26,540 nucleotides of DNA from a virus. The notes under the pieces were generated by a model that searched no databases, was not told the origin of the DNA, and saw only the letters and a program-made list of their open reading frames with translations. Positions 1 through 26,454 of this stretch are shown piece by piece; position 1 is the stretch's first letter; the number at the start of each line of letters is the position of its first letter. A program made the translations under genes and the position numbers. Location: the IMG/VR virus record IMGVR_UViG_3300025584_000018, one strand, 5' to 3'.

Positions 1-144
1 GAATTCTTTTTCTGTTTCTTCAGACCAAGTATGTTTAAAGAACCAATTATCTTCTTGCATATCAATATCATTATAATTTACTCCTGCAAATAAACACATT
101 GTGTTTAAAATAATATTGAGATGTGTACCATATTCTTTTTTCAT
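1..144 (-). CDS. Hypothetical protein, 5' part (runs off window start)
   Basis: ATG at 144 overlaps the upstream TAA (TAATG); reads MKKEYGTHLNIILNTMCLFAGVNYNDIDMQEDNWFFKHTWSEETEKEF with no stop. Confidence 0.75.
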   Translation of the reverse strand, partial: MKKEYGTHLNIILNTMCLFAGVNYNDIDMQEDNWFFKHTWSEETEKEF

Positions 145-470
145 TACAGCCCCCATACTCTATTTTTATCATAGATGAATTCAACTCCATCATAATCATA
201 TATATCCCAATCAACATCATCAGGTATTTCTAACACATCTAATGCTGAATAACGTCCGTTAGCATCTTCACCCAACTTTTCAACTACTTTTACTAAATTT
301 TCATCATCACGGTTCAAATCCCACACAAAAAATGTATACTTACCAACACCAAACTTATCATCTTTAGCGGTCAACTCTAATTCTATACCAGACAAATCAG
401 CATATTTTTCAATAGCCAAATCCGACAATCCAAATCCACCAAAACATCTGTTTATTACTATTTTTTTCAT
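144..470 (-). CDS. Conserved phage hypothetical protein (108 aa)
   Basis: KIVINRCFGGFGLS...RDDENLVKVVEKLG...LEIPDDVDWDIYDYDGVE pattern recognised from a widespread phage family of unknown function. Confidence 0.85.
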   Translation of the reverse strand: MKKIVINRCFGGFGLSDLAIEKYADLSGIELELTAKDDKFGVGKYTFFVWDLNRDDENLVKVVEKLGEDANGRYSALDVLEIPDDVDWDIYDYDGVEFIYDKNRVWGL

Positions 471-640
471 TATATCAAACTCCTAATTAATGTGAATAAT
501 CCAACTAATCCAAGTCCAGAGAATATACCAAAGTAAAATCCTTTACGTTGGAATGTTTCTGCTACTGCTATCAAATCCCACTGTGATACTGATACTTCTT
601 TATCCATATCTTCTGTATTATTTATTTCCGGGAAATTCAT
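470..640 (-). CDS. Small putative membrane protein (56 aa, not in ORF track)
   Basis: ATG 640 overlaps upstream TGA; MNFPEINNTEDMDKEVSVSQWDLIAVAETFQRKGFYFGIFSGLGLVGLFTLIRSLI; hydrophobic C-terminus; stop overlaps next ATG. Confidence 0.7.
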   Translation of the reverse strand: MNFPEINNTEDMDKEVSVSQWDLIAVAETFQRKGFYFGIFSGLGLVGLFTLIRSLI

Positions 641-999
641 TTTACCACCTCTAATTTTGCTAATTCAGTTTTTCCAAATTGTGTAACGTGAGAACTAACC
701 ACGTGTTCGTTTCTATCGAAATTCTCTAGCCATTGTTGATGACGCAACACTTGATGTAAATCATACGCTAATTCACTATCTTCAGTATGTCCAAACATTT
801 GATTGTAATCATAATCAGAATCTAACGTTTTTAATAATTCACGTTGTTTATCATTTAACTTTTCTAATGATTTATCATCCCATGTAATATCATCCAATGC
901 ATATTTTAACTGACCAACTAACTGTCTCATTAATGAGTGAGTTGCTCGATTTAAAATATCGAGTTGTTTTTCATTTATTGTTAATGTGTATTTTTTCAT
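637..999 (-). CDS. Hypothetical protein (120 aa)
   Basis: ORF track; downstream of promoter 1026-1054. Confidence 0.8.
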   Translation of the reverse strand: MKKYTLTINEKQLDILNRATHSLMRQLVGQLKYALDDITWDDKSLEKLNDKQRELLKTLDSDYDYNQMFGHTEDSELAYDLHQVLRHQQWLENFDRNEHVVSSHVTQFGKTELAKLEVVK

Positions 1000-1025
1000 T
1001 TGTAGCCTTTATTTAGTCACCCTAT

Positions 1026-1054
1026 AATATACAACATATTTTTGTTAAAATCAA
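1026..1054 (-). promoter_or_regulatory. sigma70-like promoter TTGATT-N17-TATATT
   Basis: -35 at 1054-1049, -10 at 1031-1026, 17-bp spacer, just upstream of the ORF starting at 999. Confidence 0.7.
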
Positions 1055-1329
1055 GTAGTTTTTTTCATTTGTTTGTGAAATTTATTTAATTGTGCGGCTA
1101 ATAATTTAGTTTGTTGCTTATTTAACAGAATACTATCTGCACTTAACTCACCGTGCCATAGTGCTCTCCAAATATAAGATACTCGTTGTCTCAAAGTTGA
1201 GCTTCCCCAATTACTATATCTCATCATTGAGATTTCTATATCGTCAGTCCAATCTTTCCAAAGGGTTATTCTTATAGTTGAACAGCCACATTCACAATCA
1301 ACATAGTATTTTTCTTTATCATTTTTCAT
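1051..1329 (-). CDS. Hypothetical protein with CxCxC motif (92 aa)
   Basis: ORF track; YYVDCECGCS. Confidence 0.8.
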   Translation of the reverse strand: MKNDKEKYYVDCECGCSTIRITLWKDWTDDIEISMMRYSNWGSSTLRQRVSYIWRALWHGELSADSILLNKQQTKLLAAQLNKFHKQMKKTT

Positions 1330-1463
1330 TAGTCCACCAACGTTTTTTTAATATTAACTTCTGAGCCCATTCGAATTACAATCTTCTTAAACCAGATAGA
1401 GTTCATAACTTTATCAAATTCAACTTTTGGATTATATCTTTTGTTTGTTTTTTTATCTCTCAT
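1329..1463 (-). CDS. Small hypothetical protein (44 aa, not in ORF track)
   Basis: MRDKKTNKRYNPKVEFDKVMNSIWFKKIVIRMGSEVNIKKTLVD; AGGTG RBS; TAATG coupling to next gene. Confidence 0.65.
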   Translation of the reverse strand: MRDKKTNKRYNPKVEFDKVMNSIWFKKIVIRMGSEVNIKKTLVD

Positions 1464-1471
1464 AACACCTA

Positions 1472-1500
1472 AATCTACACATAATAAACGACAAAGTAAA
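1472..1500 (-). promoter_or_regulatory. Weaker sigma70-like promoter TTTACT-N17-TAGATT
   Basis: Same spacing and position as the other class members; two mismatches to the local consensus. Confidence 0.45.
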
Positions 1501-1503
1501 GGA

Positions 1504-1761
1504 TTATTTTGAATATTTTTTCCAAAGTCTATTACATTCTATCATATCTCTTTCTCTAATTTGTGTAGTTGGATAACATCCAATCATAGACTTAACCCGA
1601 AGAATATCACTTCGTTCAACTAGTGTTTGAGACGAAGAAGTAGTGAATATAATTCTTCGTAATAACTTATCTAATTTCTCTGTTATAGTATTTTGTTTAA
1701 ACATAGTATATACCCAATTATCATTAAATGATGGAGTTGATAATATAATTACCTTACTCAT
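1504..1761 (-). CDS. Hypothetical protein ending in CNRLWKKY motif (85 aa; probable start MSKVII)
   Basis: ORF track, start moved to the ATG overlapping the end of the upstream gene. Confidence 0.75.
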   Translation of the reverse strand: MSKVIILSTPSFNDNWVYTMFKQNTITEKLDKLLRRIIFTTSSSQTLVERSDILRVKSMIGCYPTTQIRERDMIECNRLWKKYSK

Positions 1762-2182
1762 CTTTGTATTTTTTCCATAATTCATTACACCGTAACATTT
1801 CAGAGCGACTTATCTCTCCATCATTTATTAGTCTATTCATTATATTATAGATTTCAAGCGTATGGTCTTCACTCCAATATGCCGCTCCGCAATTAATGAT
1901 AGCATTACTTAACTTTTTCAATTTATTTTTTACTTTGTAGAAAAAACCTTTATGATTATCATCTTCATTCATGTTAAAATCTACAATTATTCGTGCGTAT
2001 AATTCACTTGCACTTAATTTAGAAAGTTCATCGGCATTATAAATTTTATGTTTAATTCCTGGGATTTGTAAGTCTCCAAATACAGTATAGGAATCAGTGT
2101 TCGTATAATACTTAAACTTTTTAATTACACCTATACACTTTAGTAAATCTAATCCCTTATCTACGTGAGTGTATTTTGGCAT
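1754..2182 (-). CDS. Hypothetical protein ending in CNELWKKY motif (142 aa)
   Basis: ORF track; abuts the metallophosphoesterase stop. Confidence 0.8.
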   Translation of the reverse strand: MPKYTHVDKGLDLLKCIGVIKKFKYYTNTDSYTVFGDLQIPGIKHKIYNADELSKLSASELYARIIVDFNMNEDDNHKGFFYKVKNKLKKLSNAIINCGAAYWSEDHTLEIYNIMNRLINDGEISRSEMLRCNELWKKYKDE

Positions 2183-2857
2183 CTATATCTCTATAATGGT
2201 TACTGGATTTGTTAGTTTATATTGCTCGTTCATCACAGAAACGTTAAAACATTCAGTCACACTATCATCATTCCATTTGATTGTTTCTTTCATTCCACCC
2301 GAACCGTGGATATGGCCGAACATTGCAACTTTAGGTTTAACTCGTTCTAAATAATTTTTAAAGTGAATACAACCTAATGGTCTTTCGTGTTTATATTCTG
2401 GTGTAACTGAATCTAAAACTTTATATGGGGGGCCATGACAAACTACAACATCAGCTTCTGGTGCATTCTCCCAAAATATTTTTGATTGTCTTTCTGTAAG
2501 ATTGAATGCCCAATTATTAAATTCGGGTGTGAAGTTACTACCGAAGAATTTAAGTCCTTCTATCTCTACTACTGTATCGTGTATGTACATAGAATCACAT
2601 TCATTATCTATGACTTCTGCGTTATACGGAAAATCTTCAATCCCTAAGGAGTGATTTCCAGCAATCCAAAGTTTATAGTCAAACTGTGTTTGGCCTTTCA
2701 TCCAATATATGAAATCTTGAAGTTCAGTTGGTTTATCTGTGTATGTTGCATCACCTGCATGTACTAGCACCGAAGTAACATCATCTGAAATTTCAGGTAC
2801 ATCAAATGAATAATCACAATGATTATCCGATACTGCTATTATTTGTATTTTCTTCAT
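2183..2857 (-). CDS. Calcineurin-like metallophosphoesterase
   Basis: All five motifs in order: SDNH, HAGD, GNH, HGPP, GHIH. Confidence 0.9.
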   Translation of the reverse strand: MKKIQIIAVSDNHCDYSFDVPEISDDVTSVLVHAGDATYTDKPTELQDFIYWMKGQTQFDYKLWIAGNHSLGIEDFPYNAEVIDNECDSMYIHDTVVEIEGLKFFGSNFTPEFNNWAFNLTERQSKIFWENAPEADVVVCHGPPYKVLDSVTPEYKHERPLGCIHFKNYLERVKPKVAMFGHIHGSGGMKETIKWNDDSVTECFNVSVMNEQYKLTNPVTIIEI

Positions 2858-2865
2858 AACCTTTT

Positions 2866-2894
2866 AATATACGACTTTATTGTGTTAAAGTCAA
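2866..2894 (-). promoter_or_regulatory. sigma70-like promoter TTGACT-N17-TATATT
   Basis: -35 at 2894-2889, -10 at 2871-2866; GACTTT-N8-AAAGTC inverted repeat (2873-2892) overlaps the -35. Confidence 0.75.
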
Positions 2895-2991
2895 GTCTTT
2901 TTAATGGAATAAATATACTCCACGTGATAATATTATAGTTATTATCGCGCTTGTTTTAATCCTTTCATTATATTATCAAGTTCACTTCTTT

Positions 2992-3180
2992 CTATATATA
3001 TAACTTTTCATTTCTTTTAAAATTTCTTAAAAAGAATCCATCTTCACCTTTGATATACTGTTTTTCATCTGTGTCCGATACGCTATCTTCATCCGCTTCA
3101 TTGAGTTCCTGCAGGATGTAGATTATTATTCCTATTTGCCACACCAGTAGTGAGCAGAATAAAAATTCCTTAATTGCCAC
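2992..3180 (-). CDS. Small membrane-anchored hypothetical protein (62 aa)
   Basis: N-terminal hydrophobic helix FLFCSLLVWQIGIIIYIL followed by an acidic tail. Confidence 0.65.
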   Translation of the reverse strand: MAIKEFLFCSLLVWQIGIIIYILQELNEADEDSVSDTDEKQYIKGEDGFFLRNFKRNEKLYI

Positions 3181-3466
3181 TCATATCCTTCTTGAGTCCC
3201 CCTAAATAATTTAATATTCTTGCTATTTTTCCACTCTCAACTCTATATGCAGTTTTATCAATTTGTTTTTTATCTTTCATCATTTCTACAGTTTTTGATT
3301 CTTTTTCCCAATGCTTGATGAGTTCATCAGTATTCATCTTAGAAAGTGCTTTAGCTTCATTTACAGATTCTTTAAATGATGTTTTAAATTCCTGACTCAT
3401 GGACTTACTCTGTGCTTGGATTTCCTCTCTAATCATTTCTCTTAATTGTGTTTTAGTTATTTTCAT
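3170..3466 (-). CDS. MKITK-leader protein A (98 aa), possible virion-internal protein
   Basis: First 16 aa identical to 3596..3973; AGGA RBS; ATATTTAT upstream; function inferred only. Confidence 0.8.
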   Translation of the reverse strand: MKITKTQLREMIREEIQAQSKSMSQEFKTSFKESVNEAKALSKMNTDELIKHWEKESKTVEMMKDKKQIDKTAYRVESGKIARILNYLGGLKKDMSGN

Positions 3467-3540
3467 TTTATTTATATCCTATAGTTATATGATTATAAAT
3501 ATACAAAACTTTTTTTTAATCCCATAAACTGAAAAAGTAT
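3420..3540. repeat. 121-bp direct repeat, copy 1 (copy 2 at 3927-4048)
   Basis: Identical except T8 versus T9; contains the 3' end of the 4024..4599 gene, ATATTTAT, an RBS and the first 16 codons of the MKITK genes. Confidence 0.97.
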
Positions 3541-3552
3541 AAGCTTTATCAT
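3493..3552 (-). pseudogene. 19-codon stub ORF MIKLILFQFMGLKKSFVYL behind a strong RBS
   Basis: AGGAGAAATATT-ATG at 3564-3550; after 4 codons it reads into repeat copy 1, consistent with a captured gene start. Confidence 0.45.
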
Positions 3553-3595
3553 AATATTTCTCCTAATAATAAAAAGCTATGTTTAGTTTCAGTTC

Positions 3596-3973
3596 TTACA
3601 ATATGTACGTACTTTTGACTTTATAGTTAATTTTCTTTTTACCATCTTCATCTATATACTCTATGTCAAAATCAAAGCTAGGAACTGACCCAAAATAATA
3701 AAATCTCACATCTACAATTTTACCCTTAGTAGCAGGAATTTTTTTCGTTTTCCCATGAGCAGTAACAACCTTATACCTATCATAGGTTACATTACTTCCT
3801 TTGAGTTTATTAATCGCAGACTTTATTAACTTATCCTCAGTAGTATCTCTAGCCTTTTCAGCACCATCTGCTATACCATTTCCAAGAGCATTAATTTGCT
3901 TTGAAGATACCGTGCCTTCATTCAATATTTCCTCTCTAATCATTTCTCTTAATTGTGTTTTAGTTATTTTCAT
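3596..3973 (-). CDS. MKITK-leader protein B (125 aa), possible virion-internal protein
   Basis: MKITKTQLREMIREEILNE followed by an unrelated Lys-rich body; function inferred only. Confidence 0.82.
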   Translation of the reverse strand: MKITKTQLREMIREEILNEGTVSSKQINALGNGIADGAEKARDTTEDKLIKSAINKLKGSNVTYDRYKVVTAHGKTKKIPATKGKIVDVRFYYFGSVPSFDFDIEYIDEDGKKKINYKVKSTYIL

Positions 3974-4048
3974 TTTATTTATATCCTATAGTTATATGAT
4001 TATAAATATACAAAACTTTTTTTTTAATCCCATAAACTGAAAAAGTAT
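3927..4048. repeat. 122-bp direct repeat, copy 2
   Basis: Direct comparison with 3420-3540. Confidence 0.97.
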
Positions 4049-4599
4049 TCTCCAATCAATTCAAAGGAACGTTTTACAGAACTATTCAATTTTTCATACT
4101 CACCGTCTTTTTTGTAATCGTAGTCAGCATCATGGATTAGTTTGGCACACTTGAGCCCGTAAATGATTTCCCCATACACATTCTGCATACGTTGTTCTGC
4201 TTTCTCACTCGCTTCATCTGTTGGATTTCCATCTTCATCAACTCCATCTTTTTCATCGTAGAAAGCCATTGAAACACCTACGTGGTCTTTTTTCAAGCTC
4301 TCAAACATTGGAATTAGAATTGTGACTAAATGGTAATCAATCCCCCAAGTATCCTGGTAAGAGTAGCCTTGTTTTGCTCGTTGGTAGTAATGCTTCAAAG
4401 CCCCTGGTCGAATTTTATCCCACCAGTCGTTTAAAACTTTTTGGTGAAATGGAAAATAAATCCAGTCTTCCCATTTTGCTATAAACCAATTTCGTTGTGA
4501 GTCGCGATAATCCATCATTTCTCTTAAGTCTGTGAAACATACATCTCCACCATCAGTGGATATACATCCTTCGCAAGTTTCTTCATTGTGTTTTTTCAT
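4024..4599 (-). CDS. Conserved phage hypothetical protein (191 aa)
   Basis: QRAKQGYSYQDTWGIDYHL...ELIGEYFFSLWD pattern recognised from a common phage family ending in LWD. Confidence 0.85.
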   Translation of the reverse strand: MKKHNEETCEGCISTDGGDVCFTDLREMMDYRDSQRNWFIAKWEDWIYFPFHQKVLNDWWDKIRPGALKHYYQRAKQGYSYQDTWGIDYHLVTILIPMFESLKKDHVGVSMAFYDEKDGVDEDGNPTDEASEKAEQRMQNVYGEIIYGLKCAKLIHDADYDYKKDGEYEKLNSSVKRSFELIGEYFFSLWD

Positions 4600-4838
4600 T
4601 TTACCTCTTCCATTTTTATTGATTTATTATTAACTTCTACATCGTAGTAAATAGTTTTCGGTTTTGGCTTATTCATATTGTTTACATCTAATCGTATTCT
4701 ATTTCTAGCATGCGACGGATCTCCAGATGCATGTCCTTCTAATGATGTGTATAATCCATACCATCTTTTTTTATATGGTTCATGAACTGTAATTCCCAAA
4801 TCATTTTTCCACGATTTTATTTTATATTTGTATTTCAT
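4596..4838 (-). CDS. Hypothetical protein (80 aa)
   Basis: ORF track; ATGA overlaps at both ends. Confidence 0.75.
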   Translation of the reverse strand: MKYKYKIKSWKNDLGITVHEPYKKRWYGLYTSLEGHASGDPSHARNRIRLDVNNMNKPKPKTIYYDVEVNNKSIKMEEVK

Positions 4839-4939
4839 TTGTTTCTAATATCCTCTAAAATTTCTATTATATTCTGTAGTCCTTCTTTTATCATGTTAAA
4901 TAAAAATCCTACTACTACTAATATAGCAAGTTCTATCAT
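4835..4939 (-). CDS. Small single-TM peptide (34 aa, not in ORF track)
   Basis: MIELAILVVVGFLFNMIKEGLQNIIEILEDIRNK; ATGA overlaps at both ends fill the gap exactly. Confidence 0.7.
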   Translation of the reverse strand: MIELAILVVVGFLFNMIKEGLQNIIEILEDIRNK

Positions 4940-5382
4940 ATTAATCCCCGCCGTCTCATATCATCTTGAATCACATCGCAATACTCTTTACTCGTTTTGA
5001 GTGATGGAGCATCACCTGTTAGTTTTTCCATTTCACTACGATAATGTTTTATACCATCCAACTTTCTATCCTGTTTTATAAAATCTTCTATATCAAAATC
5101 TATAGTGAGTTTGTTGCTTGACCCTGCACCATTCTTGATTTTGTTTCGTATTCTCCATATTTTATTTGCCGCTTTCATTGTTTCAGCTAACGTTTCCCGT
5201 TCTGTATCAGCATCTGGCATTTTTTTACCTGTATGAAAATCTCTTACTACATTCATCATAACACTTGCAGATATTAAATGGTCGTCAAATAATTCATTGT
5301 CAGTAACTTCATCTGATTCAGTTTCTTCTACTAATTCAATTAGCAACTGTAACTTATCTAAAGTTTTAGTGTATTTAGTCAT
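4936..5382 (-). CDS. Hypothetical protein with ribosomal protein L7/L12 C-terminal-like domain (148 aa)
   Basis: KLDGIKHYR...TGDAPSLKTSKEYCD resembles the bL12 CTD pattern KIxxIKxxRxxTGxxLKEAKxxVE, with an insertion. Confidence 0.5.
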   Translation of the reverse strand: MTKYTKTLDKLQLLIELVEETESDEVTDNELFDDHLISASVMMNVVRDFHTGKKMPDADTERETLAETMKAANKIWRIRNKIKNGAGSSNKLTIDFDIEDFIKQDRKLDGIKHYRSEMEKLTGDAPSLKTSKEYCDVIQDDMRRRGLI

Positions 5383-5388
5383 ATTGTG

Positions 5389-5673
5389 TTAGGCTACCAC
5401 CATGGGGAATAAAGTTACTTCTTTGCCGTTAGCAAGTTTCTTTGTTATATCTTTATTTTCAAACCAATGCATTACTAAATCTTTTAAGAGTTCTAAGTCA
5501 ATTACTTTTGTAGGTTGAACTACAGTTGGTTCACTATTACCTATATCACAGTAAAGAAAATCTACAACATAGTATTCATCTGGACAATGTTTATTTAACT
5601 TATGTCGCATTTCTTTTATGCTATCTGGAATTGATAGTTCCAATGGTTCTAATTCGGGGCTAATTACTTTCAT
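5389..5673 (-). CDS. Hypothetical protein (94 aa)
   Basis: ORF track. Confidence 0.75.
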   Translation of the reverse strand: MKVISPELEPLELSIPDSIKEMRHKLNKHCPDEYYVVDFLYCDIGNSEPTVVQPTKVIDLELLKDLVMHWFENKDITKKLANGKEVTLFPMVVA

Positions 5674-5830
5674 CTATAATCACCGTATTTTCGCTAATAT
5701 CAGTTTCAAATAGTATAGTATCATCGGGAATATCATTTTGAATATGCATCCAAACTTCATTCCCATTAATTAATAGTGGAAATTCAGCTGAATATGTTTT
5801 TATAAATTTAATTAATTTGGCTTCAGACAT
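5660..5830 (-). CDS. Hypothetical acidic protein (56 aa, not in ORF track)
   Basis: MSEAKLIKFIKTYSAEFPLLINGNEVWMHIQNDIPDDTILFETDISENTVIIDESN; ATG follows the upstream TAA after 2 nt. Confidence 0.6.
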   Translation of the reverse strand: MSEAKLIKFIKTYSAEFPLLINGNEVWMHIQNDIPDDTILFETDISENTVIIDESN

Positions 5831-5832
5831 AC

Positions 5833-5889
5833 TTAAATCTTCATACCCACCATTGGGAATAAATTTACTAACTTATTATAATTTTTCAT
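5833..5889 (-). CDS. 18-aa micro-ORF or frameshifted start of the 5660..5830 gene
   Basis: AGGATAAATAAA-ATG RBS like neighbouring genes; MKNYNKLVNLFPMVGMKI. Confidence 0.4.
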   Translation of the reverse strand: MKNYNKLVNLFPMVGMKI

Positions 5890-5905
5890 TTTATTTATCC
5901 TATAT

Positions 5906-6160
5906 TTATTCTGTATTATAGATATGTCCAGAAAAGCGTTCATCTTTTTCTTGCGTTAAGTTTCTTAATGTGAATCCAGTATCATCAAATACGTCACCTA
6001 ACATTTCTGTCTCGTCGAATTCGATAATGTCGCCAGGCAACCAATTTAACTTATCTGTAAGATCGTCTGGTAAAACTATGTATAGTTCACCGTCAGTATC
6101 TTTTTGTACTTTTGTGCTCCATGTTGTTGATGGTTCACCTCGTTTTGGACTGTTATTCAT
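5906..6160 (-). CDS. AbrB/MazE/SpoVT-like DNA-binding protein (84 aa)
   Basis: VQKDTDGELYIVLPDDLTDKLNWLPGDIIEF matches the swapped-hairpin pattern GxxxIxLPxxxxxxLxWxxGDxL/I. Confidence 0.6.
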   Translation of the reverse strand: MNNSPKRGEPSTTWSTKVQKDTDGELYIVLPDDLTDKLNWLPGDIIEFDETEMLGDVFDDTGFTLRNLTQEKDERFSGHIYNTE

Positions 6161-6339
6161 TTTGTAACTCCGTTTTGTTTATAAAAATCATCTAATTCAT
6201 CTGCACCTAACATCTCAAATTCTATCACATCAAATGGGTGTCCCTCTAATGGTCTGTATAAGTGAGTTATTCCATCTTCATCCATCCCCAAGAATAACCA
6301 GCCTTGTCCATTCCACCATACATAATCATTGTTTTTCAT
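6157..6339 (-). CDS. Hypothetical protein (60 aa)
   Basis: ORF track; ATGA overlap. Confidence 0.7.
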   Translation of the reverse strand: MKNNDYVWWNGQGWLFLGMDEDGITHLYRPLEGHPFDVIEFEMLGADELDDFYKQNGVTK

Positions 6340-6340
6340 T

Positions 6341-6598
6341 TTATTGATGCCATTGAACTGTAGCTTGGTTTAAATGTTTGCGCATTTGTTCTTCTACGAT
6401 ATCCCAATCAAAACTACGTCTCCATTTAGAAATATTAGTATGTTCGATATAATCTTTGATAACATCTCCCAATTTTGCACTATGTAATTTTAATTTCATT
6501 GTGCTCATTTTTGATTTTTCATACTGACTATACATTTCTACTGGGACATCGTCTATTTTGTCTGTGCCGTACTTTTCGGTTAATTGTTCGTATTTCAT
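6341..6598 (-). CDS. Hypothetical protein (85 aa)
   Basis: AAGGAGAAATAAA-ATG RBS. Confidence 0.8.
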   Translation of the reverse strand: MKYEQLTEKYGTDKIDDVPVEMYSQYEKSKMSTMKLKLHSAKLGDVIKDYIEHTNISKWRRSFDWDIVEEQMRKHLNQATVQWHQ

Positions 6599-6623
6599 TT
6601 TATTTCTCCTTAAAATAATCTTT
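6596..6623 (-). repeat. 28-bp gene-junction module AAAGATTATTTTAAGGAGAAATAAAATG, copy A
   Basis: Other copies at 7288-7315 (ATG>ACG), 8064-8091 (identical), 9140-9167 (1 mismatch); encodes RLF-stop fused to RBS and start codon. Confidence 0.95.
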
Positions 6624-7290
6624 CTTGTGTAGTATGTTTTTCGATTCTTTCTTCTGCAATGTTGAAATATGTTTCATCAATCTCAATACCTATAAAATCT
6701 CTATTAGTTTGTTTACAAGCAACTCCTGTTGAACCTGAACCCATAAAAGGGTCTAAAATAATTTGTGTTTCATCTGTATTATTTTTTACAAATATTTCAA
6801 GCATATCCACATTTTTTTCAGTAGGGTGTAATAATTTACTACTTGAAATTTTAGGAAATTCCATAACATCGGACAATCTTTTTTCTCTAAACAAACTTCT
6901 TCCTTTATGTGCATAAATTATAAATTCGTGTTTCGGTGCGTATGATGCCTTTAAATCTCCAGAGCCATGATTATTTTTAACCCAGACAATAATATTTTTT
7001 ATTTTGAAATATTTTTCAATAGATTGTTTAAATTTATCAACATTATGCCAACTACAAAAAATATATAAAGATGAATTATTATTAAGAATTTTATCTGATT
7101 TTATTAAAAAATCTTCAAGCCAAATTAAATTTGAATCATTTTTTATTTTATCAAATTTTTCTTTCACAACTCTTCTATTACTTTGAAAAGACATTCCATA
7201 AGGTGGGTCTGTAATTATAGCATCGACCTTAATCCCATCTTCAATCATTCTATCCATTGCTATTAAGCAATCTTCATTATAGAGTTTCGT
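6610..7290 (-). CDS. Orphan DNA methyltransferase 1, beta class, DPPY (probably m6A); apparent ACG start, 226 aa
   Basis: DPPY precedes DPFMGSGSTG; RBS then ACG-AAA-CTC-TAT-AAT-GAA-GAT-TGC (xKLYNEDC) in frame 11 codons above the track start, matching MTase 2 MKLYNEDC. Confidence 0.9.
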   Translation of the reverse strand, partial: TKLYNEDCLIAMDRMIEDGIKVDAIITDPPYGMSFQSNRRVVKEKFDKIKNDSNLIWLEDFLIKSDKILNNNSSLYIFCSWHNVDKFKQSIEKYFKIKNIIVWVKNNHGSGDLKASYAPKHEFIIYAHKGRSLFREKRLSDVMEFPKISSSKLLHPTEKNVDMLEIFVKNNTDETQIILDPFMGSGSTGVACKQTNRDFIGIEIDETYFNIAEERIEKHTTQERLF

Positions 7291-7315
7291 TTTATTTCTC
7301 CTTAAAATAATCTTT
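7288..7315 (-). repeat. 28-bp junction module, copy B (ATG replaced by ACG)
   Basis: Direct comparison with copies A and C. Confidence 0.95.
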
Positions 7316-8066
7316 GTTGTGTTTCTTTTATTCTTTTCTCTGCTATATCACAATACTCACTACTCATCTCACTACCTATCCAATTTCTATTATTTAAAAT
7401 AGCCATCTTTGCTGTTGTTCCACTTCCCATAAAAGGGTCGTAAACAATATCATTTTCATTACTCCAACTTATTATGTGGTCATTCGCTAATTGTTCTGGG
7501 AATTGAGCAACGTGATTAGCTGTATTATAACCGCCAGTGTTATACTTCCAAACATTACCTTTCTGTTTTTTATCTTTGGTTTTTAAAGATGTTTGTGTTT
7601 CTCTTAATCCTATACCAATTTCATTAGTTTTCCTGCTTCTTTTTATTGTTTTGCCAGCGTGAATACAATCAATCATTAAAGGATTAAAAGACTTTGGTTT
7701 TTCTTTACTGAAAACGAACATATATTCAAACTCTTGCTCATATCTTTTATGTGTTAGTGGTATAAAATTTGCTTTTTGGTAAATCATAGTGTCATTCAGC
7801 CTAAATCCACATTCTTTTAAAAATAATGCTTGTTTAAAAGATGTTCCTGTCTCACTTCCTTTTATTGTTGCATCTCCAACAATCCAAACTACTACACCGC
7901 CTTCTTTAGTTACTCTATACAATTCTTTAGCTATGCTTTCAAAATCAAAACTATAACCATTGTACGTCCTTAAATTGTCATAAGGTGGAGATGTTACTGT
8001 TAAGTCAATAAAGTTATCTTCCATTCTTGCCATTGTATCAAGGCAGTCTTCATTATAGAGTTTCAT
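7302..8066 (-). CDS. Orphan DNA methyltransferase 2, beta class, SPPY (probably m4C), 254 aa
   Basis: TSPPY catalytic motif; H..QFPE; DPFMGSGTTA SAM motif. Confidence 0.92.
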   Translation of the reverse strand: MKLYNEDCLDTMARMEDNFIDLTVTSPPYDNLRTYNGYSFDFESIAKELYRVTKEGGVVVWIVGDATIKGSETGTSFKQALFLKECGFRLNDTMIYQKANFIPLTHKRYEQEFEYMFVFSKEKPKSFNPLMIDCIHAGKTIKRSRKTNEIGIGLRETQTSLKTKDKKQKGNVWKYNTGGYNTANHVAQFPEQLANDHIISWSNENDIVYDPFMGSGTTAKMAILNNRNWIGSEMSSEYCDIAEKRIKETQQRLF

Positions 8067-8091
8067 TTTATTTCTCCTTAAAATAATCTTT
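8064..8091 (-). repeat. 28-bp junction module, copy C
   Basis: Identical to copy A. Confidence 0.95.
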
Positions 8092-9031
8092 GTTGTGTAG
8101 TATGTTTTTCAATTCGCTTTTTAGCTATCTCAAAATAATCTTTGTCTATTTCAATCCCTATAAAGTCTCTATTCAAGTTTTTACAAGCTACTCCTGTTGT
8201 TCCACTTCCCATTGTTAAATCAACTACTGAATCATTTTCATTGCTAAAAGTCTTCATCAAATCTTCAAGCAACAATACAGGCTTTTGCGTTGGATGGTAA
8301 CCGTCATAATCCTTTTTGTATTTTAAAATATTTGATTTGTATTTTTTACCTTCCCATAGGTTAAAGGTGCTTGCGAACCTTTTAAAACAATTAAAATGTA
8401 TTTCCTTTAACTCTTGGTATTCCCTATTAAAAAAACCAGTTACTTCTCTTAATTTTAAATAATGTTTTTCAGGTATCATTGATGGTTGCAATGAACTACA
8501 CCAATGGTAAGCGGCTCCACCGTGTCCTTTTGTATTTAATCCACAAACACCACACATTTCATCAAGTGTTAGTTTTGCTTTTTTACGTTCTATATTTAAG
8601 TATTCTCTATAACTATCATCTTCACCATAAGTTCCGTGAGAGCCTTTGCTAAAAACTAAAACATCTTCATAATAATTTAAAGGTGCTTTTTTAGCTGTTA
8701 AAGCATTTGCAAAATGGTCTTTCTCCCATATCATACTATAATTAAATGGTAAGTTTGGCAGTGCTTTATTTATTAATTCATTTGTAAATGGTTGCTGTGC
8801 TGTTAATATCATTTTGCCGTTTTTTCTTAAAATACGATTTGCGATTTCCATTATTTTATTAATATCAATAACACTATCCCATTCAGTTTTCCCTTTCATT
8901 CCATGATTTATGCTTTCACTATTTCCTAACCCTTTAACAGTTCCATAAGGTAAATCAGTCAATATTAAATCAACACTTCCATCTTTTATATGCTTGTGTT
9001 GTTCTAAACAGTCACCTTTATAGAGTTTCAT
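8078..9031 (-). CDS. Orphan DNA methyltransferase 3, beta class, DLPY, 317 aa
   Basis: TDLPY, HPTQKP, DLTMGSGTTG, FIGIE; central insert of about 90 aa. Confidence 0.92.
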   Translation of the reverse strand: MKLYKGDCLEQHKHIKDGSVDLILTDLPYGTVKGLGNSESINHGMKGKTEWDSVIDINKIMEIANRILRKNGKMILTAQQPFTNELINKALPNLPFNYSMIWEKDHFANALTAKKAPLNYYEDVLVFSKGSHGTYGEDDSYREYLNIERKKAKLTLDEMCGVCGLNTKGHGGAAYHWCSSLQPSMIPEKHYLKLREVTGFFNREYQELKEIHFNCFKRFASTFNLWEGKKYKSNILKYKKDYDGYHPTQKPVLLLEDLMKTFSNENDSVVDLTMGSGTTGVACKNLNRDFIGIEIDKDYFEIAKKRIEKHTTQQRLF

Positions 9032-9046
9032 TTTATTTCTCCTTTG

Positions 9047-9142
9047 TTAAATTGTTCCGTAAACAATACTAACAACAATTATTACCGTGATTGCTATTAA
9101 TCCAAAAACAAATACTATATTATCATCAAGTTCAATCTTCAT
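9047..9142 (-). CDS. 31-aa single-TM peptide inside the MTase array (not in ORF track)
   Basis: Junction copy D supplies RBS and ATG; MKIELDDNIVFVFGLIAITVIIVVSIVYGTI. Confidence 0.7.
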   Translation of the reverse strand: MKIELDDNIVFVFGLIAITVIIVVSIVYGTI

Positions 9143-9167
9143 TTTATTTTTCCTTAAAATAATCTTT
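9140..9167 (-). repeat. 28-bp junction module, copy D
   Basis: One mismatch (AAGGAA versus AAGGAG). Confidence 0.93.
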
Positions 9168-10086
9168 CTTGTTTAGTATGTTTTTCAATTCTTTCTTCTG
9201 CAATTTTAAAATAGTTTTCATCTAATTCAATACCTATAAAATCACGATTTGTATTCATACAAGCAACTCCTGTACTTCCACTACCCATTGTTAAATCAAC
9301 TACTAAATCGTTTTCATTACTAAATGTCTTAATCAAATCTTCAAGCAACAATACAGGCTTTTGCGTTGGATGGTAACCGTCATAATCCTTTTTGTATTTT
9401 AGTATATTGCTTTTGTATTTGTTGCCTTCCCATAAGTTAAATGTACTTGTATGTCTTTCATTTATCTTTTCAAGCTCACTGTAATTTAAAAATCCATCCA
9501 TATTATTAATTCGGTATTCTGTAATTAAAGCTAAGTATGTTTCTTTTTTGCAAAGTTCAAATTGTGAGCTTTTTATTCTAAAAACGTGGTCAGCTCTTTG
9601 TCCTATTGCCTCAATTACATTTTTCTTTTTAAGTCCAATAAAAGAAAGCACGTTACCAAAATACGTTCTAAGTGGGTGCAAGTTTTCAACATCATACTTT
9701 TTGCTAAAAACTAAAACATCTTCAATATAACTTACAGGTGCTTTATTTGACACTAAACAATTTGCAAAGTGCATTTTATCCCAGTACATATTATAGCTAT
9801 GAGGTAAGTTAGGAATAGCTTTTGATATTAATTCAGTTGTAAAAGGTTGGTTAGCTGTTAAAATCATCTTGCCATTTTTTCTTAATATCCTATTGGCTAT
9901 CTGCATGACTTGATCGGTATCAATAGTAATATCCCACTCAGAAACATTATATTTTTTTTCTTTTGCTACCCTGCTATTACCCAACCCTTTAACCGTTCCA
10001 TAAGGCAAGTCCGTAAGCACCAAATCTACACTTCCATCTTTTATATGCTTGTGTTGTTCTAAACAGTCACCTTTATAGAGTTTCAT
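9154..10086 (-). CDS. Orphan DNA methyltransferase 4, beta class, DLPY, 310 aa; paralog of MTase 3
   Basis: Start corrected to MKLYKGDC (AAGGA RBS); near-identical N- and C-terminal blocks to MTase 3 with an unrelated central insert. Confidence 0.92.
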   Translation of the reverse strand: MKLYKGDCLEQHKHIKDGSVDLVLTDLPYGTVKGLGNSRVAKEKKYNVSEWDITIDTDQVMQIANRILRKNGKMILTANQPFTTELISKAIPNLPHSYNMYWDKMHFANCLVSNKAPVSYIEDVLVFSKKYDVENLHPLRTYFGNVLSFIGLKKKNVIEAIGQRADHVFRIKSSQFELCKKETYLALITEYRINNMDGFLNYSELEKINERHTSTFNLWEGNKYKSNILKYKKDYDGYHPTQKPVLLLEDLIKTFSNENDLVVDLTMGSGSTGVACMNTNRDFIGIELDENYFKIAEERIEKHTKQERLF

Positions 10087-10087
10087 T

Positions 10088-10273
10088 TTATTTTTCCTTA
10101 AATGTTTTAAGTTTTCCATTTTGAGCTGAATACCATTTGTTCATATACCTAAATTCAAATCCTTTATCTCTCATACAAATAGCAATTTCTTCACCATGTT
10201 TAGTTTTTAAAACAACTCCGTTATAAATCTCTTGCAGGATTATTGTGCCTTTTTTGTCTGTTGTTACTTTCAT
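10088..10273 (-). CDS. Hypothetical protein (61 aa; start MKVTTDKK)
   Basis: GGAGAAATAAA-ATG at 10273. Confidence 0.75.
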   Translation of the reverse strand: MKVTTDKKGTIILQEIYNGVVLKTKHGEEIAICMRDKGFEFRYMNKWYSAQNGKLKTFKEK

Positions 10274-10398
10274 TTTATTTCTCCAAACTTTTCTTCTAAC
10301 CACATTGTACATTCTGGACAGTAGTATGAATCGTGTTTTTCATTATACCACGACACTTTGTGCTCTTTACATAAATTTATATTGTGTTTATGTTTCAT
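10270..10398 (-). CDS. Small Cys/His protein (42 aa, not in ORF track)
   Basis: MKHKHNINLCKEHKVSWYNEKHDSYYCPECTMWLEEKFGEIK; CxxH...CxxC; coupled at both ends. Confidence 0.65.
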   Translation of the reverse strand: MKHKHNINLCKEHKVSWYNEKHDSYYCPECTMWLEEKFGEIK

Positions 10399-10923
10399 TT
10401 ACATAAACCTCTGCTGTGTTTCTCTTTTTCTATTATACTCTTTATACATTCCATTACAATCTTCTAAGTTGTTTTTTGTTGGTGGACAATTACGAATTGA
10501 ATCAGTATATTCTTGAGTTGTGTATTTTCTCGGGTATAATTGATGACGGATATGATGCCTCATATTATCCACGAACTCTTTTTGCCTATTCTTTCTCTCG
10601 GAATCTGTAACTGATGTTTCTTTGATTAGTTTCCATAACTTATTTAATTTTCTTCCTATTGGATGCCTCTCTAAATCTGGCATATCACCGTCCATTAGAT
10701 AAATCAATTCATTCTTTACATCAAGCTTAGTTTCAAGACTTTCTAATTTACTTAGTTCTATTAAACCAGATCGTGTACGTCTATCGTTAGTTTTCTGTCG
10801 CGTCAGGCGAACCATATTTGTATCATCAATATTAGTGTAGTGAGCATAGTTATCAAAAAAATTACTCTTTTCTAATTCTTCTAACGCGTCGTGGACAAAT
10901 GGTTGCATATAAACATCACTCAT
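10399..10923 (-). CDS. Hypothetical protein (174 aa) ending TQQRFM
   Basis: ORF track. Confidence 0.8.
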   Translation of the reverse strand: MSDVYMQPFVHDALEELEKSNFFDNYAHYTNIDDTNMVRLTRQKTNDRRTRSGLIELSKLESLETKLDVKNELIYLMDGDMPDLERHPIGRKLNKLWKLIKETSVTDSERKNRQKEFVDNMRHHIRHQLYPRKYTTQEYTDSIRNCPPTKNNLEDCNGMYKEYNRKRETQQRFM

Positions 10924-11338
10924 ATTTTTTACGATTTTCTATCCATTGTTCTAAATTCATAACCGGTTCGTCAGTATTCCATAAAGATTCTGATATCAAT
11001 TCTTTTACTGGTCTATTTTCGTTACCAAATCTTGCGGACATTTCATCATTTACATATAATGTAGTATCTAAACATTCTGCAATTTCCTTTAGAGTATCAC
11101 CATCAATAGTAATCGAAACGTCGCCATGCCACACTTTCCCATATTCTGGCATCACTACATTTGCATTAAACACAATTAAGTCTACTGGATGCTCTTGATG
11201 ATAGTGTGATTTAGAACCTCCAATCATTCGACCATAGAAGAAGTTATGTGCTTCAAATATCTTTTGAATATCTTGAATAGTTGTAGGTGGTTTCCAATCA
11301 CTTGGATAAAGTCCTGGGTCTTTTTTGATGTTAGTCAT
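10916..11338 (-). CDS. Conserved phage hypothetical protein (140 aa)
   Basis: GRMIGGSKS.Y...VFNANV...KVWHGD...LYV.DE..ARF pattern recognised from a phage family of unknown function. Confidence 0.8.
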   Translation of the reverse strand: MTNIKKDPGLYPSDWKPPTTIQDIQKIFEAHNFFYGRMIGGSKSHYHQEHPVDLIVFNANVVMPEYGKVWHGDVSITIDGDTLKEIAECLDTTLYVNDEMSARFGNENRPVKELISESLWNTDEPVMNLEQWIENRKKYE

Positions 11339-11495
11339 TACTTAGCACGTCACTATCAGGAACATTAAAAGTAACAAAACGATTTGAAATTCCATCTTGT
11401 CTTGTCAGTGATACAGTATAACTATTTTTTACTAATGCTATAATCAAAGCATCCATAGTACTTTCATCTACTATTTGTATATTAATTGTTTTCAT
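11331..11495 (-). CDS. Hypothetical protein (54 aa, not in ORF track)
   Basis: GGGAG RBS; MKTINIQIVDESTMDALIIALVKNSYTVSLTRQDGISNRFVTFNVPDSDVLSND. Confidence 0.7.
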   Translation of the reverse strand: MKTINIQIVDESTMDALIIALVKNSYTVSLTRQDGISNRFVTFNVPDSDVLSND

Positions 11496-11516
11496 TTAAA
11501 ACTCCCTTGTTGTATA

Positions 11517-11951
11517 TTAACTGTTTTCATTTAATACTTCCTTGACTTCCATGAAGAAATCATTGTCATCGTTTTTAACTAACCACACATTCTCAAATAA
11601 ATAGAGATAGTCCCCCCATGACTTATCAAAATAATCTAACATTGTTTCCAAGTTAGAAAATTCATTTATTTCTAAATCATCACCTCTGTCTCTATGATAT
11701 GCCATTGTAACATCTTTCAATTCAATTTCATTTCCTCTTATTGGGAATGTTTTAAAATTATTTTGTGTTTCAATGTCGTCTCGTAAGTATGATAATGATC
11801 CGAGTTTAAGTAACTTATCTACTTTATTTTCATCAGTAAAACTATCTACTAATGTTTGTCCAACCCCTTCTGGATACCCGTCGAAATGACAATATACTGC
11901 CTTGAATGTTTCGTCTGGTTGTTTCTTTGCTATATATGACCGAGTGCTCAT
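11517..11951 (-). CDS. Conserved phage hypothetical protein (144 aa)
   Basis: MSTRSYI...VYCHFDGYPEGVGQTL...KVDKLLKLGSLSYL pattern recognised from a widespread phage family. Confidence 0.85.
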   Translation of the reverse strand: MSTRSYIAKKQPDETFKAVYCHFDGYPEGVGQTLVDSFTDENKVDKLLKLGSLSYLRDDIETQNNFKTFPIRGNEIELKDVTMAYHRDRGDDLEINEFSNLETMLDYFDKSWGDYLYLFENVWLVKNDDNDFFMEVKEVLNENS

Positions 11952-12015
11952 TTTTTATTCCTCATTTGTTGCCTTAATATACTACGAAAAATCGTAAAAG
12001 TCAAGCTTTATTTTT
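11952..12015 (-). repeat. 64-bp promoter/RBS cassette, copy 1 (identical copy at 26224-26287)
   Basis: Contains TTGACT-N17-TATATT (12004-11976), TACGA-N4-TCGTA inverted repeat in the spacer, and GAGGA RBS. Confidence 0.97.
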
Positions 12016-12017
12016 AA

Positions 12018-12278
12018 TTAAATTCTATTGTGATTATTACAACATTCAACATCACAATAATTATATAGTTGTATTTTACTTTTACCCTTTAAGTCCGACC
12101 TATCTATTTTAATATCAGACTTTCTATATATTGGCATTTCTTCAAATGATCCAAGAGGTGGAACTACGTGGCATACTAATGGATTAGTTGCCATCTTTCC
12201 ACAATTATGACATTTTCGTTTTATTGGTGATTTTATTTTCTTCTTCAAGTGATTGGACCTCCAGTATAAATTTCCCAT
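12018..12278 (-). CDS. Small Zn-binding hypothetical protein (86 aa)
   Basis: CHNC...YCDVECC. Confidence 0.7.
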   Translation of the reverse strand: MGNLYWRSNHLKKKIKSPIKRKCHNCGKMATNPLVCHVVPPLGSFEEMPIYRKSDIKIDRSDLKGKSKIQLYNYCDVECCNNHNRI

Positions 12279-16243: not shown

Positions 16244-16270
16244 ATGATTTTGTCCTTTTAGTTTCCTTTG

Positions 16271-16299
16271 ATCTTACAACAAAAAAATGAGAAAGTCAA
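16271..16299 (-). promoter_or_regulatory. sigma70-like promoter TTGACT-N17-TAAGAT
   Basis: Shares 18 bp AAAAATAACACTTGACTT (16293-16310) with the promoter at 16796-16813. Confidence 0.7.
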
Positions 16300-16309
16300 G
16301 TGTTATTTT

Positions 16310-16546
16310 TTATAATTCTGGGTGTGATTTGTCAAACCAAAAATCTTCATCATTAACATATTCCATATCTATATAGTCCATAATTTCGCCAGCAAGATTT
16401 TCATTAAATTTCCAAAAATCATCGCCAGACATTTCATTAATTTTTGTTATGTGAACTTCATCACTCGTTACATTCCACGATACATTATAATAAATATTAG
16501 TATCTTCATCAAAATACTCAAACTCTTCATCAAAAAACCAAGTCAT
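16310..16546 (-). CDS. Highly acidic small protein (78 aa)
   Basis: 22 D/E versus 3 K/R; aromatic-rich. Confidence 0.8.
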   Translation of the reverse strand: MTWFFDEEFEYFDEDTNIYYNVSWNVTSDEVHITKINEMSGDDFWKFNENLAGEIMDYIDMEYVNDEDFWFDKSHPEL

Positions 16547-16773: not shown

Positions 16774-16802
16774 AATATACGGAAAAGATCAATACAAGTC
16801 AA
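16774..16802 (-). promoter_or_regulatory. sigma70-like promoter TTGACT-N17-TATATT
   Basis: -35 at 16802-16797, -10 at 16779-16774. Confidence 0.75.
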
Positions 16803-16815
16803 GTGTTATTTTTGT

Positions 16816-17757
16816 TTATTTATTTTTATTTTCTACGACTGGATAGTGTATTCCACGATCTTGTGGGACTGTTGGAGTTTCCTTTATAACTTTTGTTTCT
16901 TCTATAACCTTATCTAACTTTTTTTCAGTAATATCCGGTTCTATTGTTTCTTTAACAAGTTTCTCAAATAATGGTTTATCTTCACCATATAGTTTCCACC
17001 ACTTTTTTCGTTTCTTTGGTTCTGTATTTTCTGGTGGAGTGTGATGTTCTGCTCTATGAACCATTGCTATGTTATATGCAATAACTAATACGACAGCCAT
17101 TGGGTCAAACACGAAAATGAGGATGAATATAAAAAACTTAACTACTGTATCTATATCGGTTTTGAATGTTCTGGCAAGATAGATAGCTGGACCTACATCA
17201 ACACCGGTTTCAATTAATACTGTTTTTAAATCTCCAATATCTTCTTTAATATCTAATATTTGTTCATTTAGGTTTAAAATTTTTGGGTTGTAATCTTCAC
17301 GGAGTTTTCGTCTGGCTGTAATATAGTTGTCCGGTAATAATGCTACAGATTGTTCTAATTCACTTTTTAGATATACCTTATCTTCTTCTAACTGTTCTAA
17401 TCTATCTTCTTTGTAAATCAGTTTTGTAGATTGTTTCTCAAACTCTACTGTGGCCCCTTGATAGGCATTGGATAAGAATCCGAATATACCTGCTGATGTA
17501 ATTCCAACTAAAGTTATTGTTCCAACCAATAGATAAGTTTTCATAAACCCATTTATTTTAGTCCAATACCGATATAAGAATGATGCTGTTACTAACTTTG
17601 CAAACTCTAATGATCCTGCCATTATCACTACTGCTAATGCTGCTCCGGCGAATAATTTTGATAATCCATATACTGAATAGAATGCCGCACTACCCGCTAC
17701 GAGTAGTGCTGCTAATCCTACTAAATATGGAAATGTTTTACTATTTTGCGTCTCCAC
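16816..17757 (-). CDS. Multi-TM plus coiled-coil phage membrane protein (313 aa, GTG start)
   Basis: About three N-terminal TM helices (AAFYSVYGL, SLEFAKLV, ITSAGIFGFLS), coiled coil, TM with FDPMAV; family recognised from large myophages, function unknown. Confidence 0.8.
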   Translation of the reverse strand: METQNSKTFPYLVGLAALLVAGSAAFYSVYGLSKLFAGAALAVVIMAGSLEFAKLVTASFLYRYWTKINGFMKTYLLVGTITLVGITSAGIFGFLSNAYQGATVEFEKQSTKLIYKEDRLEQLEEDKVYLKSELEQSVALLPDNYITARRKLREDYNPKILNLNEQILDIKEDIGDLKTVLIETGVDVGPAIYLARTFKTDIDTVVKFFIFILIFVFDPMAVVLVIAYNIAMVHRAEHHTPPENTEPKKRKKWWKLYGEDKPLFEKLVKETIEPDITEKKLDKVIEETKVIKETPTVPQDRGIHYPVVENKNK

Positions 17758-21943: not shown

Positions 21944-22441
21944 TCAAAACGTCTTTTTATTTTTAAAATCAAAAAATTCGCCGGACTTATTTTCAGCATA
22001 ACTATTAGTTGGATGAGTGTCATCAAATCTATAATGATATGTTAATGCATCTGCACACACTATATTCTTGTCTAATATATCTAATATTTCTTGTGTAGGA
22101 TTTGGACCTGCCAATCTTTCTTTACATAACTGAACATTATCTTCCATCAGTTCTACACCATAGGTAGTGGATAATGCCTGTTCTAATGTACAATTACTTT
22201 GTTCCATTTTTCTTATTACTACTTCTGAAAGGAATTGGCCATCTCCACAAGATGGTTCTAAAAATGTTTTATTTGAATTTAAAAATAACTCCGGATCTTC
22301 TTTTTCAAGTATATCTAATTTTTCTTGTATATCTTTAGTAGGTGTAAATACTTCTGAAGTTTCTTTAACTCTAAGTTTATCTCGTTCAATTCCACTCATA
22401 TAACTAAAATGACGACTATGTTTAATAAACTCCTTTATCAT
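21944..22441 (-). CDS. SAM-binding half of an N6-adenine methyltransferase, no NPPY motif (165 aa; start MIKEFI)
   Basis: EVFTP, FLEPSCGDGQFL, YGVELMEDN, NIVCADAL, then ends; ATG overlaps the stop of the large gene (TAATG). Confidence 0.8.
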   Translation of the reverse strand: MIKEFIKHSRHFSYMSGIERDKLRVKETSEVFTPTKDIQEKLDILEKEDPELFLNSNKTFLEPSCGDGQFLSEVVIRKMEQSNCTLEQALSTTYGVELMEDNVQLCKERLAGPNPTQEILDILDKNIVCADALTYHYRFDDTHPTNSYAENKSGEFFDFKNKKTF

Positions 22442-26220: not shown

Positions 26221-26223
26221 AAC

Positions 26224-26449: not shown

Positions 26450-26454
26450 TTATA

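Follow-up and report, generated by a model that had tools for sequence, protein, structure and literature searches.

The closest described counterpart of the element analysed here is the capsid targeting sequence (CTS) of bacteriophage T4, on which Mullaney and Black have reportedly worked; in T4, a Glu-to-Asp change at the cleavage site prevents processing while leaving targeting intact. The CTS, which corresponds to residues 1–10 of IPIII, serves to bring internal proteins of otherwise diverse sequence into the scaffolding core (PMC9026906, PMC3012670) and is removed from IPI, IPII and IPIII (and Alt) by the prohead protease gp21 (PMC9026906, PMC3012670), which cuts after Glu in the motif L/I-x-E (PMC9026906). 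In the T4 genome (NC_000866) the products of ipII and ipIII both start with MKTYQEFIAEA, and the two genes share an identical DNA block of ~50 nt that spans the ribosome-binding site (RBS) and the CTS. The internal-protein loci of T-even phages were reportedly described as hyperplastic by Repoila, Tetart, Bouet and Krisch in 1994, while Arbiol, Comeau, Kutateladze, Adamia and Krisch are said to have described in 2010 the mobile PeSL (promoter-early stem-loop) cassettes of T4-type phages. Many head proteins of the phiKZ-like giant phages (201phi2-1, phiKZ, SPN3US) are processed by a gp21-related protease, which cleaves behind Glu in short motifs, and the propeptides hold several redundant sites (PMC9026906, PMC5694885). 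Here we report the analysis of a 26,540-nt stretch of viral DNA (IMG/VR record IMGVR_UViG_3300025584_000018, henceforth the window), in which two minus-strand genes begin with the same N-terminal leader peptide, a candidate analogue of the T4 CTS. The corresponding open reading frames (ORFs) are:

3596..3973, minus strand: 125-aa leader ORF; leader at residues 1–16, L-N-E at 17–19, then G; predicted mature part basic, with an isoelectric point (pI) of 9.5
3170..3466, minus strand: 98-aa leader ORF; leader at residues 1–16, a spacer, and a junction K-E-S-V-N-E|A-K at 32–39

Residues 1–16 of both proteins (ORFs 3973..3596 and 3466..3170) read MKITKTQLREMIREEI, and past residue 16 the two sequences are unrelated (BLASTP E = 29), exactly as claimed in the original prediction, which had regarded the leader as a candidate capsid-targeting propeptide; the continuations it had named, EEILNE-GT and ESVNE-AK, were found at residues 14–21 of the 125-aa and 33–39 of the 98-aa protein, respectively. 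Scans of IMG/VR with both window proteins identified 48 loci, with the match mostly limited to residues 1–20, and a regular-expression scan revealed that the leader opens many ORFs, with as many as ten of them in a single locus of 13.8 kb. De-duplication among the fetched viral contigs left 68 distinct leader proteins (45–316 aa, median 98; median pI 9.2), whose post-leader parts fall into 58 unrelated BLAST cargo groups. A profile of 30 positions (A1), built from 58 N-termini, gave 10,299 matches at E<=1e-3 (141 at E<=1e-10) against 1.84 billion cluster representatives (50% identity). The count in relatives that had been proposed as a check thus indicates that the leader is not confined to the duplicated pair of the window. 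The best matches to A1 are polyproteins with two to four leaders, the leader standing at the start in 134 of 150. Internal copies, some of which lack the Met, often follow E-N-K, which results from in-frame translation of the RBS region GAGAATAAA; the polyproteins are thus genuine fusions of leader genes in tandem. A second class of leader, MIKLK[DEK][LI][LI]xE (ten residues), was found on 21 further distinct ORFs of the same contigs as the MKITK leader (L002, L012, L017, L018 and L056; G006 6833–11223), with a relic at 3541–3552 of the window.

The amino acids of the leader are kept while its codons vary, and selection therefore acts on the peptide. L8 is encoded by five different codons, R13 by six, I12 by three and T4 (i.e. 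Thr at position 4) by four; pairwise nucleotide identity over codons 2–16 averages 0.88 at second versus 0.57 at third positions; the leader-bearing contigs span 31–44% GC; and the DNA ahead of leader genes is not conserved past the RBS. These comparisons make it essentially certain that T4-related phages possess in the leader a widespread and portable N-terminal module at the level of the peptide, and its carriers are a large clade of myoviruses related to T4, uncultured and mostly from marine or aquatic habitats. When 185,579 prokaryote species were searched, with one genome each, a single leader locus was confirmed, a 101-kb contig (L088, PBIO01000025.1) of a 'Halobacteriovorax' metagenome-assembled genome (MAG), with at least 16 leader ORFs of the MKITKRQLKRIIKEE type within 10 kb. 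This contig is probably phage DNA binned with a bacterium; that it carries the protease of its MAG was ruled out, since a different contig of the bin holds the gp21-type protease. A tblastn search of GenBank phages with a 25-aa leader and a conserved 126-aa head-module leader protein found no match, possibly due to low-complexity filtering, nor did a DNA search of the window region against the same phages. The exact 47-nt leader DNA of the window was not found in IMG/VR or JGI metagenome contigs, Pfam and PHROGs returned no informative family for both window proteins and ten larger cargos, and a literature search on the MKITK motif and five leader heptapeptides retrieved no relevant paper.

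The relatives connect the leader with head assembly. A protease of the PF03420 family (Peptidase_S77, the gp21 type) was identified in six of ten long leader-bearing contigs, nearly all of which are fragments. In the contigs G006 and G010, leader ORFs lie between the portal and the protease, i.e. in the position of T4 genes 67/68, and in G003 a 146-aa leader ORF begins 13 nt past the protease gene and is followed by a scaffold-like gene and then by a gene whose product is similar at its N-terminus to the protein annotated as capsid in Microcystis phage Mel-JY01. The nearest cultured proteases are those of Mel-JY01 (61%) and of Flavobacterium phage vB_FspM_immuto (47%). The latter phage exhibits a shorter leader, MKKSQLRxIIKE, on two ORFs and weaker relatives of it elsewhere, one of which, MKKSQIVKAVQEVLEE, starts a 73-aa ORF located between portal and protease. 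In Mel-JY01 the exact leader is absent from the head module, and the profile search of the whole record gave weak matches only (E >= 0.019). Small conserved proteins encoded between portal and scaffold (G006 25173–25748, G003 64286–64669, immuto 123311–123532) possess leader-like N-terminal helices, e.g. IRKIVRELIKQELGE|A. There are hints that the portable leader may mimic the N-terminus of a resident prohead core protein.

The sequences of the leader proteins are also consistent with processing by such a protease. I12 is conserved in 66 and E14 in 67 of the 68 leaders, so that an I-x-E site is built into the leader itself; in both window proteins it takes the form I-R-E at residues 12–14. MAFFT alignment revealed a second (L/I/V)-x-E motif 0–4 residues past the leader. 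[LIVM]-x-E ending at residue 18–22 occurs in 49 of 61 leader ORFs (80%) versus 72 of 426 other ORFs of the same loci (17%; Fisher p = 7e-23), and, when G, A or S is required to follow, the same motif occurs in 43% of leader ORFs versus 2.8% of the others. The 125-aa protein has L-N-E|G at residues 17–20, while the 98-aa protein, an outlier as to this next site, has V-N-E|A at 35–38. Comparative evidence supports V-N-E|A as the candidate site of the latter: in a leader-headed polyprotein (L029), a module corresponding to residues 33–95 of the 98-aa protein (95% identity) is placed between the junctions ESINE|AK and KESVNE|AK, and farther upstream there is a third one, KESVVDE|G.

Taken together, the balance of the evidence tips towards the leader being a capsid-loading propeptide that is removed by the head protease in the manner of the T4 CTS. 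The leader would dock the nascent protein to the prohead scaffolding core, whereupon a gp21-type (Peptidase_S77) head protease would cut after Glu, either at the invariant I-(R/K)-E at residues 12–14 or at the next (L/I/V)-x-E (for which the 125-aa protein offers L-N-E|G and the 98-aa protein V-N-E|A as candidates), and the basic mature part would remain in the head with the DNA and probably enter the host along with it. The best reading of the data is that of an analogue of the T4 CTS, longer and with a different motif, combined with leader-mediated swapping of cargo. As in T4, a short N-terminal peptide is common to otherwise unrelated small, mostly basic proteins, an I-x-E gp21 cleavage motif lies inside it, the phage lineage encodes a gp21-type S77 protease (for the leader, seen in the relatives), adjacent genes share identical RBS and leader DNA (~50 nt in T4 ipII/ipIII, 121 nt in the window), and the locus is hyperplastic, with cargo swapped between strains. 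Unlike the CTS, the leader is longer (16 residues, a spacer of 0–4 residues and a second (L/I/V)-x-E), occurs on as many as 10–16 genes per 10–14-kb locus and in more than 10,000 protein clusters, is also found internally in polyproteins, coexists with the second class MIKLKDLLxE in the same phages, and is known from sequence alone. Processing of head or ejection proteins after Glu is also shared with the phiKZ-like giant phages, as far as the candidate sites in the leader proteins go, but in those phages the sites are S/A-x-E and no single leader sequence is shared, whereas the phages analysed here are T4-like in the order of the head module (portal, protease, scaffold, capsid).

The arrangement of the leader genes in the window, and the traces of recombination around them, involve the following further features:

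3927..4048, minus strand: cassette copy A; final 8 codons and stop of the 191-aa gene, TATATTTAT/TATAAT promoter-like element, AGGA RBS at 3984–3987, leader codons 1–16
3420..3540, minus strand: cassette copy B; equal to copy A bar one T, with a 25-nt non-coding stub from the end (3') of the 191-aa gene at ~3516–3540
4002..4010, minus strand: TATATTTAT, late-promoter-like motif, 37 nt before the ATG of the 125-aa ORF
3495..3503, minus strand: TATATTTAT, late-promoter-like motif, 37 nt before the ATG of the 98-aa ORF
3541..3617, minus strand: 3' end of the 125-aa gene and intergenic stretch; 95% identity to L002–L004; ends in an RBS and an ATG at 3552, M-I-K-L
4024..4599, minus strand: 191-aa upstream neighbour; its 3' end falls inside the repeat

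The repeat (3420–3540 and 3927–4048, 121 versus 122 nt) differs by a single indel in a run of T and is made up of 74–75 nt upstream and 47 nt of coding sequence; the AGGA RBS sits 11–14 nt ahead of the ATG, and the 47-nt leader DNA is present in exactly two copies in the window, versus none in 100 shuffles. Copy B carries the stub of the 191-aa gene and is therefore derived from copy A. The identity of DNA within the window is due to a recent local duplication or gene conversion, in which the 121-nt block of promoter-like element, RBS and leader was copied from before the 125-aa gene to before the 98-aa gene, with the predicted outcome of two independently transcribed tagged genes in the layout of T4 ipII/ipIII. 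The arrival of copy B severed a leader gene of the second class (MIKLKDLLxE type, ATG at 3552); in L002–L004 the corresponding 76 nt (95% identity) head an intact MIKLKYLLTEN... gene. The cassette RNA folds more weakly than shuffles (z = +1.38) and the cassette has no terminator-like hairpin; RNA structure in the cassette was ruled out on the ground of this z-score. A sibling contig (L009), with 99.5% identity over window positions 1568–3483, departs from the window 17 nt ahead of the ATG, thus placing a mosaic junction at the leader. The sole close homolog of the 125-aa protein, P0001 (98% identity), has a tandem double leader. The L009 junction, the tandem leader of P0001, and the gene stub and truncated leader gene at copy B are traces of recombination; the leader DNA is a recombination point for swaps of cargo genes. 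The likeness to the hyperplastic loci of T-even phages is that diverse cargo ORFs stand behind a conserved leader, and that recombination at the leader or regulatory sequence explains the shuffling; the differences are that the evidence here comes from metagenomic siblings (L009, L014, P0001), and that the promoter has been duplicated together with a captured stub of the neighboring gene.

The element ATATTTAT, which had been noted ahead of both genes, is indeed present, in the form of TATATTTAT at 3495–3503 and 4002–4010. In 250 kb of low-GC relatives and the window, TATATTTAT occurs 33 times on the gene strand, and 25 of these occurrences lie 15–80 nt upstream of ORF starts, a zone that makes up 9% of the sequence (p = 9e-20); of 21 occurrences on the opposite strand, just 2 fall into those zones, which is no bias, and composition-matched shuffled 9-mers average 2.1 hits there. 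TATATTTAT stands ahead of the sheath and tube genes of L009; in six contigs it is found before the post-portal operon with the protease, and in L007 and L013 before the scaffold/capsid operon (in L022 at a distance of 138 nt). It has no –35 partner. Being strand-specific and located ahead of head and tail operons in relatives, TATATTTAT is a good candidate for a late promoter. The TATAAATA octamer was also considered as a T4-type late promoter of the two window genes and ruled out, since it ends 2 nt before the ATG. Most leader genes form operon-like arrays, have only the RBS in common and lack a promoter of their own, so that the portable unit is RBS plus leader rather than promoter plus RBS plus leader. 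Of the modular cassette of late promoter, RBS and tag that had been proposed originally, the portability of the leader, found on thousands of unrelated proteins, and the late type of TATATTTAT in relatives have stood up, but the promoter is generally not in the mobile unit and the 121-nt identity reflects local duplication. The cassette resembles PeSL in being a repeated regulatory block that lies beside small accessory ORFs and at points of recombination. It has neither a stem-loop nor the early CTTGACTT promoter type, and is in this respect no PeSL; moreover, it runs into coding sequence, and its motif precedes late structural operons in relatives. Early-type promoters of the window (CTTGACTT-N17-TATATT) head the gene of a 1259-aa protein and others, and the cassette is devoid of CTTGACTT. 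A 68-nt block, 99% identical between 11952–12019 and 26224–26291 (minus strand) and found also at ~1448–1515, 16247–16314 and 16796–16820, contains a near-consensus sigma-70 promoter (CTTGACTT, 17 nt, TATATT) 43–57 nt before ORFs, including the 1259-aa gene; it is probably the early promoter class of this phage.

Several observations weigh against a capsid-loading propeptide. The leader, MKITKTQLRxIIREE[IL], shares with MKTYQEFIAE of T4 only M-K and I-x-E, and it is therefore an analogue and not a homolog demonstrable from sequence. No head gene is present in the window, so that the link with the gp21-type protease is drawn via relatives, and the region otherwise looks early (sigma-70-like CTTGACTT promoters, DNA methyltransferases, chaperones). 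Besides, TATATTTAT overlaps a TATAAT hexamer, and a promoter scanner reads the cassette as sigma-70-like TTAAAA-N16/17-TATAAT, which is a possible alternative to late timing of the cassette. Profile searches found no leader in HTVC008M and S-PRM1, cultured marine T4-like phages with the protease family. The leader had been described as an amphipathic helix, a claim that finds no support, as the Eisenberg hydrophobic moment of residues 1–19 is at the level of shuffles. The single-sequence AlphaFold2 model of the 125-aa protein, with a helix at residues 5–19, is unusable (predicted local distance difference test score, pLDDT, 43). Finally, (L/I/V)-x-E followed by Gly or Ala could merely mark the end of a helix and not a cleavage site.

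In its broadest form the proposal is that, in a large clade of these phages, MKITKxQLxxIIxEE and a second tag, MIKLKDLLxE, label upwards of 10,000 protein families as head-packaged and co-injected cargo, among them polyproteins with cuts at (V/I/L)-x-E, and that the DNA of the tag doubles as a recombination site for the exchange of cargo; this we put forward tentatively, with slightly less than an even chance of being correct in full. Provided that the leader is indeed a tag for capsid loading, genomes would suffice to read off which proteins a very abundant group of ocean phages packages and probably injects; thousands of families without known function would be among these proteins, likely with anti-defence and host-takeover factors in their number. 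Should co-injection hold as well, the injected protein arsenal of these phages could be listed from the sequence alone. The CTS principle of T4 would then be general and scaled up (polyproteins, two tag classes, exchange of cargo at the tag), and new natural tags would become available for protein delivery by phage capsids. The cultured vB_FspM_immuto, with its shorter tag, makes the idea testable now.

Or perhaps the leader targets the prohead, while the cargos are scaffold or core components, or DNA-counterion peptides, degraded or expelled at maturation, and not injected effectors or anti-defence proteins? This would agree with the leader ORFs that occupy, between portal and protease, the place of the core genes 67/68 in T4, with the very small size and basic character of many cargos (medians of 98 aa and pI 9.2), and with the fact that none of the cargos tested matched a Pfam domain. 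We nevertheless consider it improbable, given the extreme diversity of the cargos (>10,000 clusters), some of which are as long as 270–316 aa, and their rapid swaps between near-identical strains. Such diversity and swapping are a signature of accessory arms-race genes like the internal proteins of T-even phages (PMC3012670), unlike conserved structural parts.

Alternatively, the leader could be a helix for docking or oligomerization with another partner (a phage or host hub protein, a chaperone such as the phage GroEL of the window, or DNA), neither cleaved nor involved in capsid loading. A helix is present in the low-confidence model of the 125-aa protein, the L-x-E-G pattern could cap a helix, GroEL and HSP20 are encoded in the window, and the leader genes of the window sit among non-structural genes. 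Yet such a role would leave unexplained the adjacency of leader genes to the prohead protease in several lineages, the strong fit to the specificity of gp21, down to the small residue that follows Glu, the repeated Glu-Ala/Gly junctions around the polyprotein modules and the late-gene motif upstream of the genes, and it appears unlikely. The last alternative, that the conserved start is a nucleic-acid feature (an initiation enhancer, an RNA element or a gene-converted recombination site) encoding a functionless peptide, could appeal to the identity of the two window copies over 121 nt including non-coding sequence, to the A-rich first codons, which favour initiation, and to the recombination breakpoints at the leader, but it is very improbable and function at the level of nucleic acid is largely refuted by the synonymous-codon analysis, with codons free to vary across contigs of 31–44% GC while the amino acids hold, upstream DNA unconserved save the RBS, cassette RNA less structured than its shuffles, and internal leaders, some without Met, retained in polyproteins.

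As to the origin of the window, the sibling contig L009 encodes, in the same orientation, a partial tail fibre, the tail sheath (E 2.6e-73), the tail tube (E 1.5e-31), an 88-aa leader protein, the identical 98-aa leader protein and the metallophosphoesterase of the window; the sheath and tube genes are thus located shortly before the 98-aa gene, a late context. The accessory genes of the window include four DNA methyltransferases, a peptide deformylase, a Ros/MucR-like protein, HSP20, GroEL and the 1259-aa protein; the T4-like contig G003 encodes homologs of GroEL and HSP20, and G010 has two other genes weakly similar to those of the window. On the basis of the synteny with L009 and the genes shared with G003 and G010, i.e. 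of its relatives, the window is taken to come from a T4-related myovirus. The relatives had been expected among megaphages, but proved to be T4-like myoviruses of roughly 100–200 kb, and an origin from a megaphage or a giant virus is ruled out by the T4-like gene content and relatives, despite the GVMAG label on one 99%-identical contig. The latter (L052, IMGVR_UViG_GVMAG-S-3300000325-26_000001), 99.3% identical to window positions 22021–26457, is filed as a giant-virus MAG and, since its gene content and relatives are those of a T4-like phage, has probably been mis-binned.

Five independent contigs (L052, L080, L081, L082 and L083) match the window with 96–99% identity from the 1259-aa gene to exactly position 22021 and then diverge, which makes the HSP20/GroEL segment below this position a variable island. 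In L081 this segment is replaced by a sulfotransferase. Positions 1–9680 of the same contig, which lie past the high end of the window, encode a MoxR/CbbQ-type AAA ATPase, a SAM-lyase-like protein, a staphylococcal-nuclease-like protein and a 744-aa protein of unknown function, and look like an anti-restriction or host-takeover neighborhood. The four DNA methyltransferases of the window (215, 254, 317 and 321 aa) are successive paralogs on the minus strand (6554–10119), with internal repeats 76–90% identical and a repeated RBS/upstream block (repeat families D1–D4 and D8). A perfect-register 35-nt tandem duplication (91% identical) was found at 11475–11544, over a gene start region between the ORFs 11331–11495 and 11517–11951.

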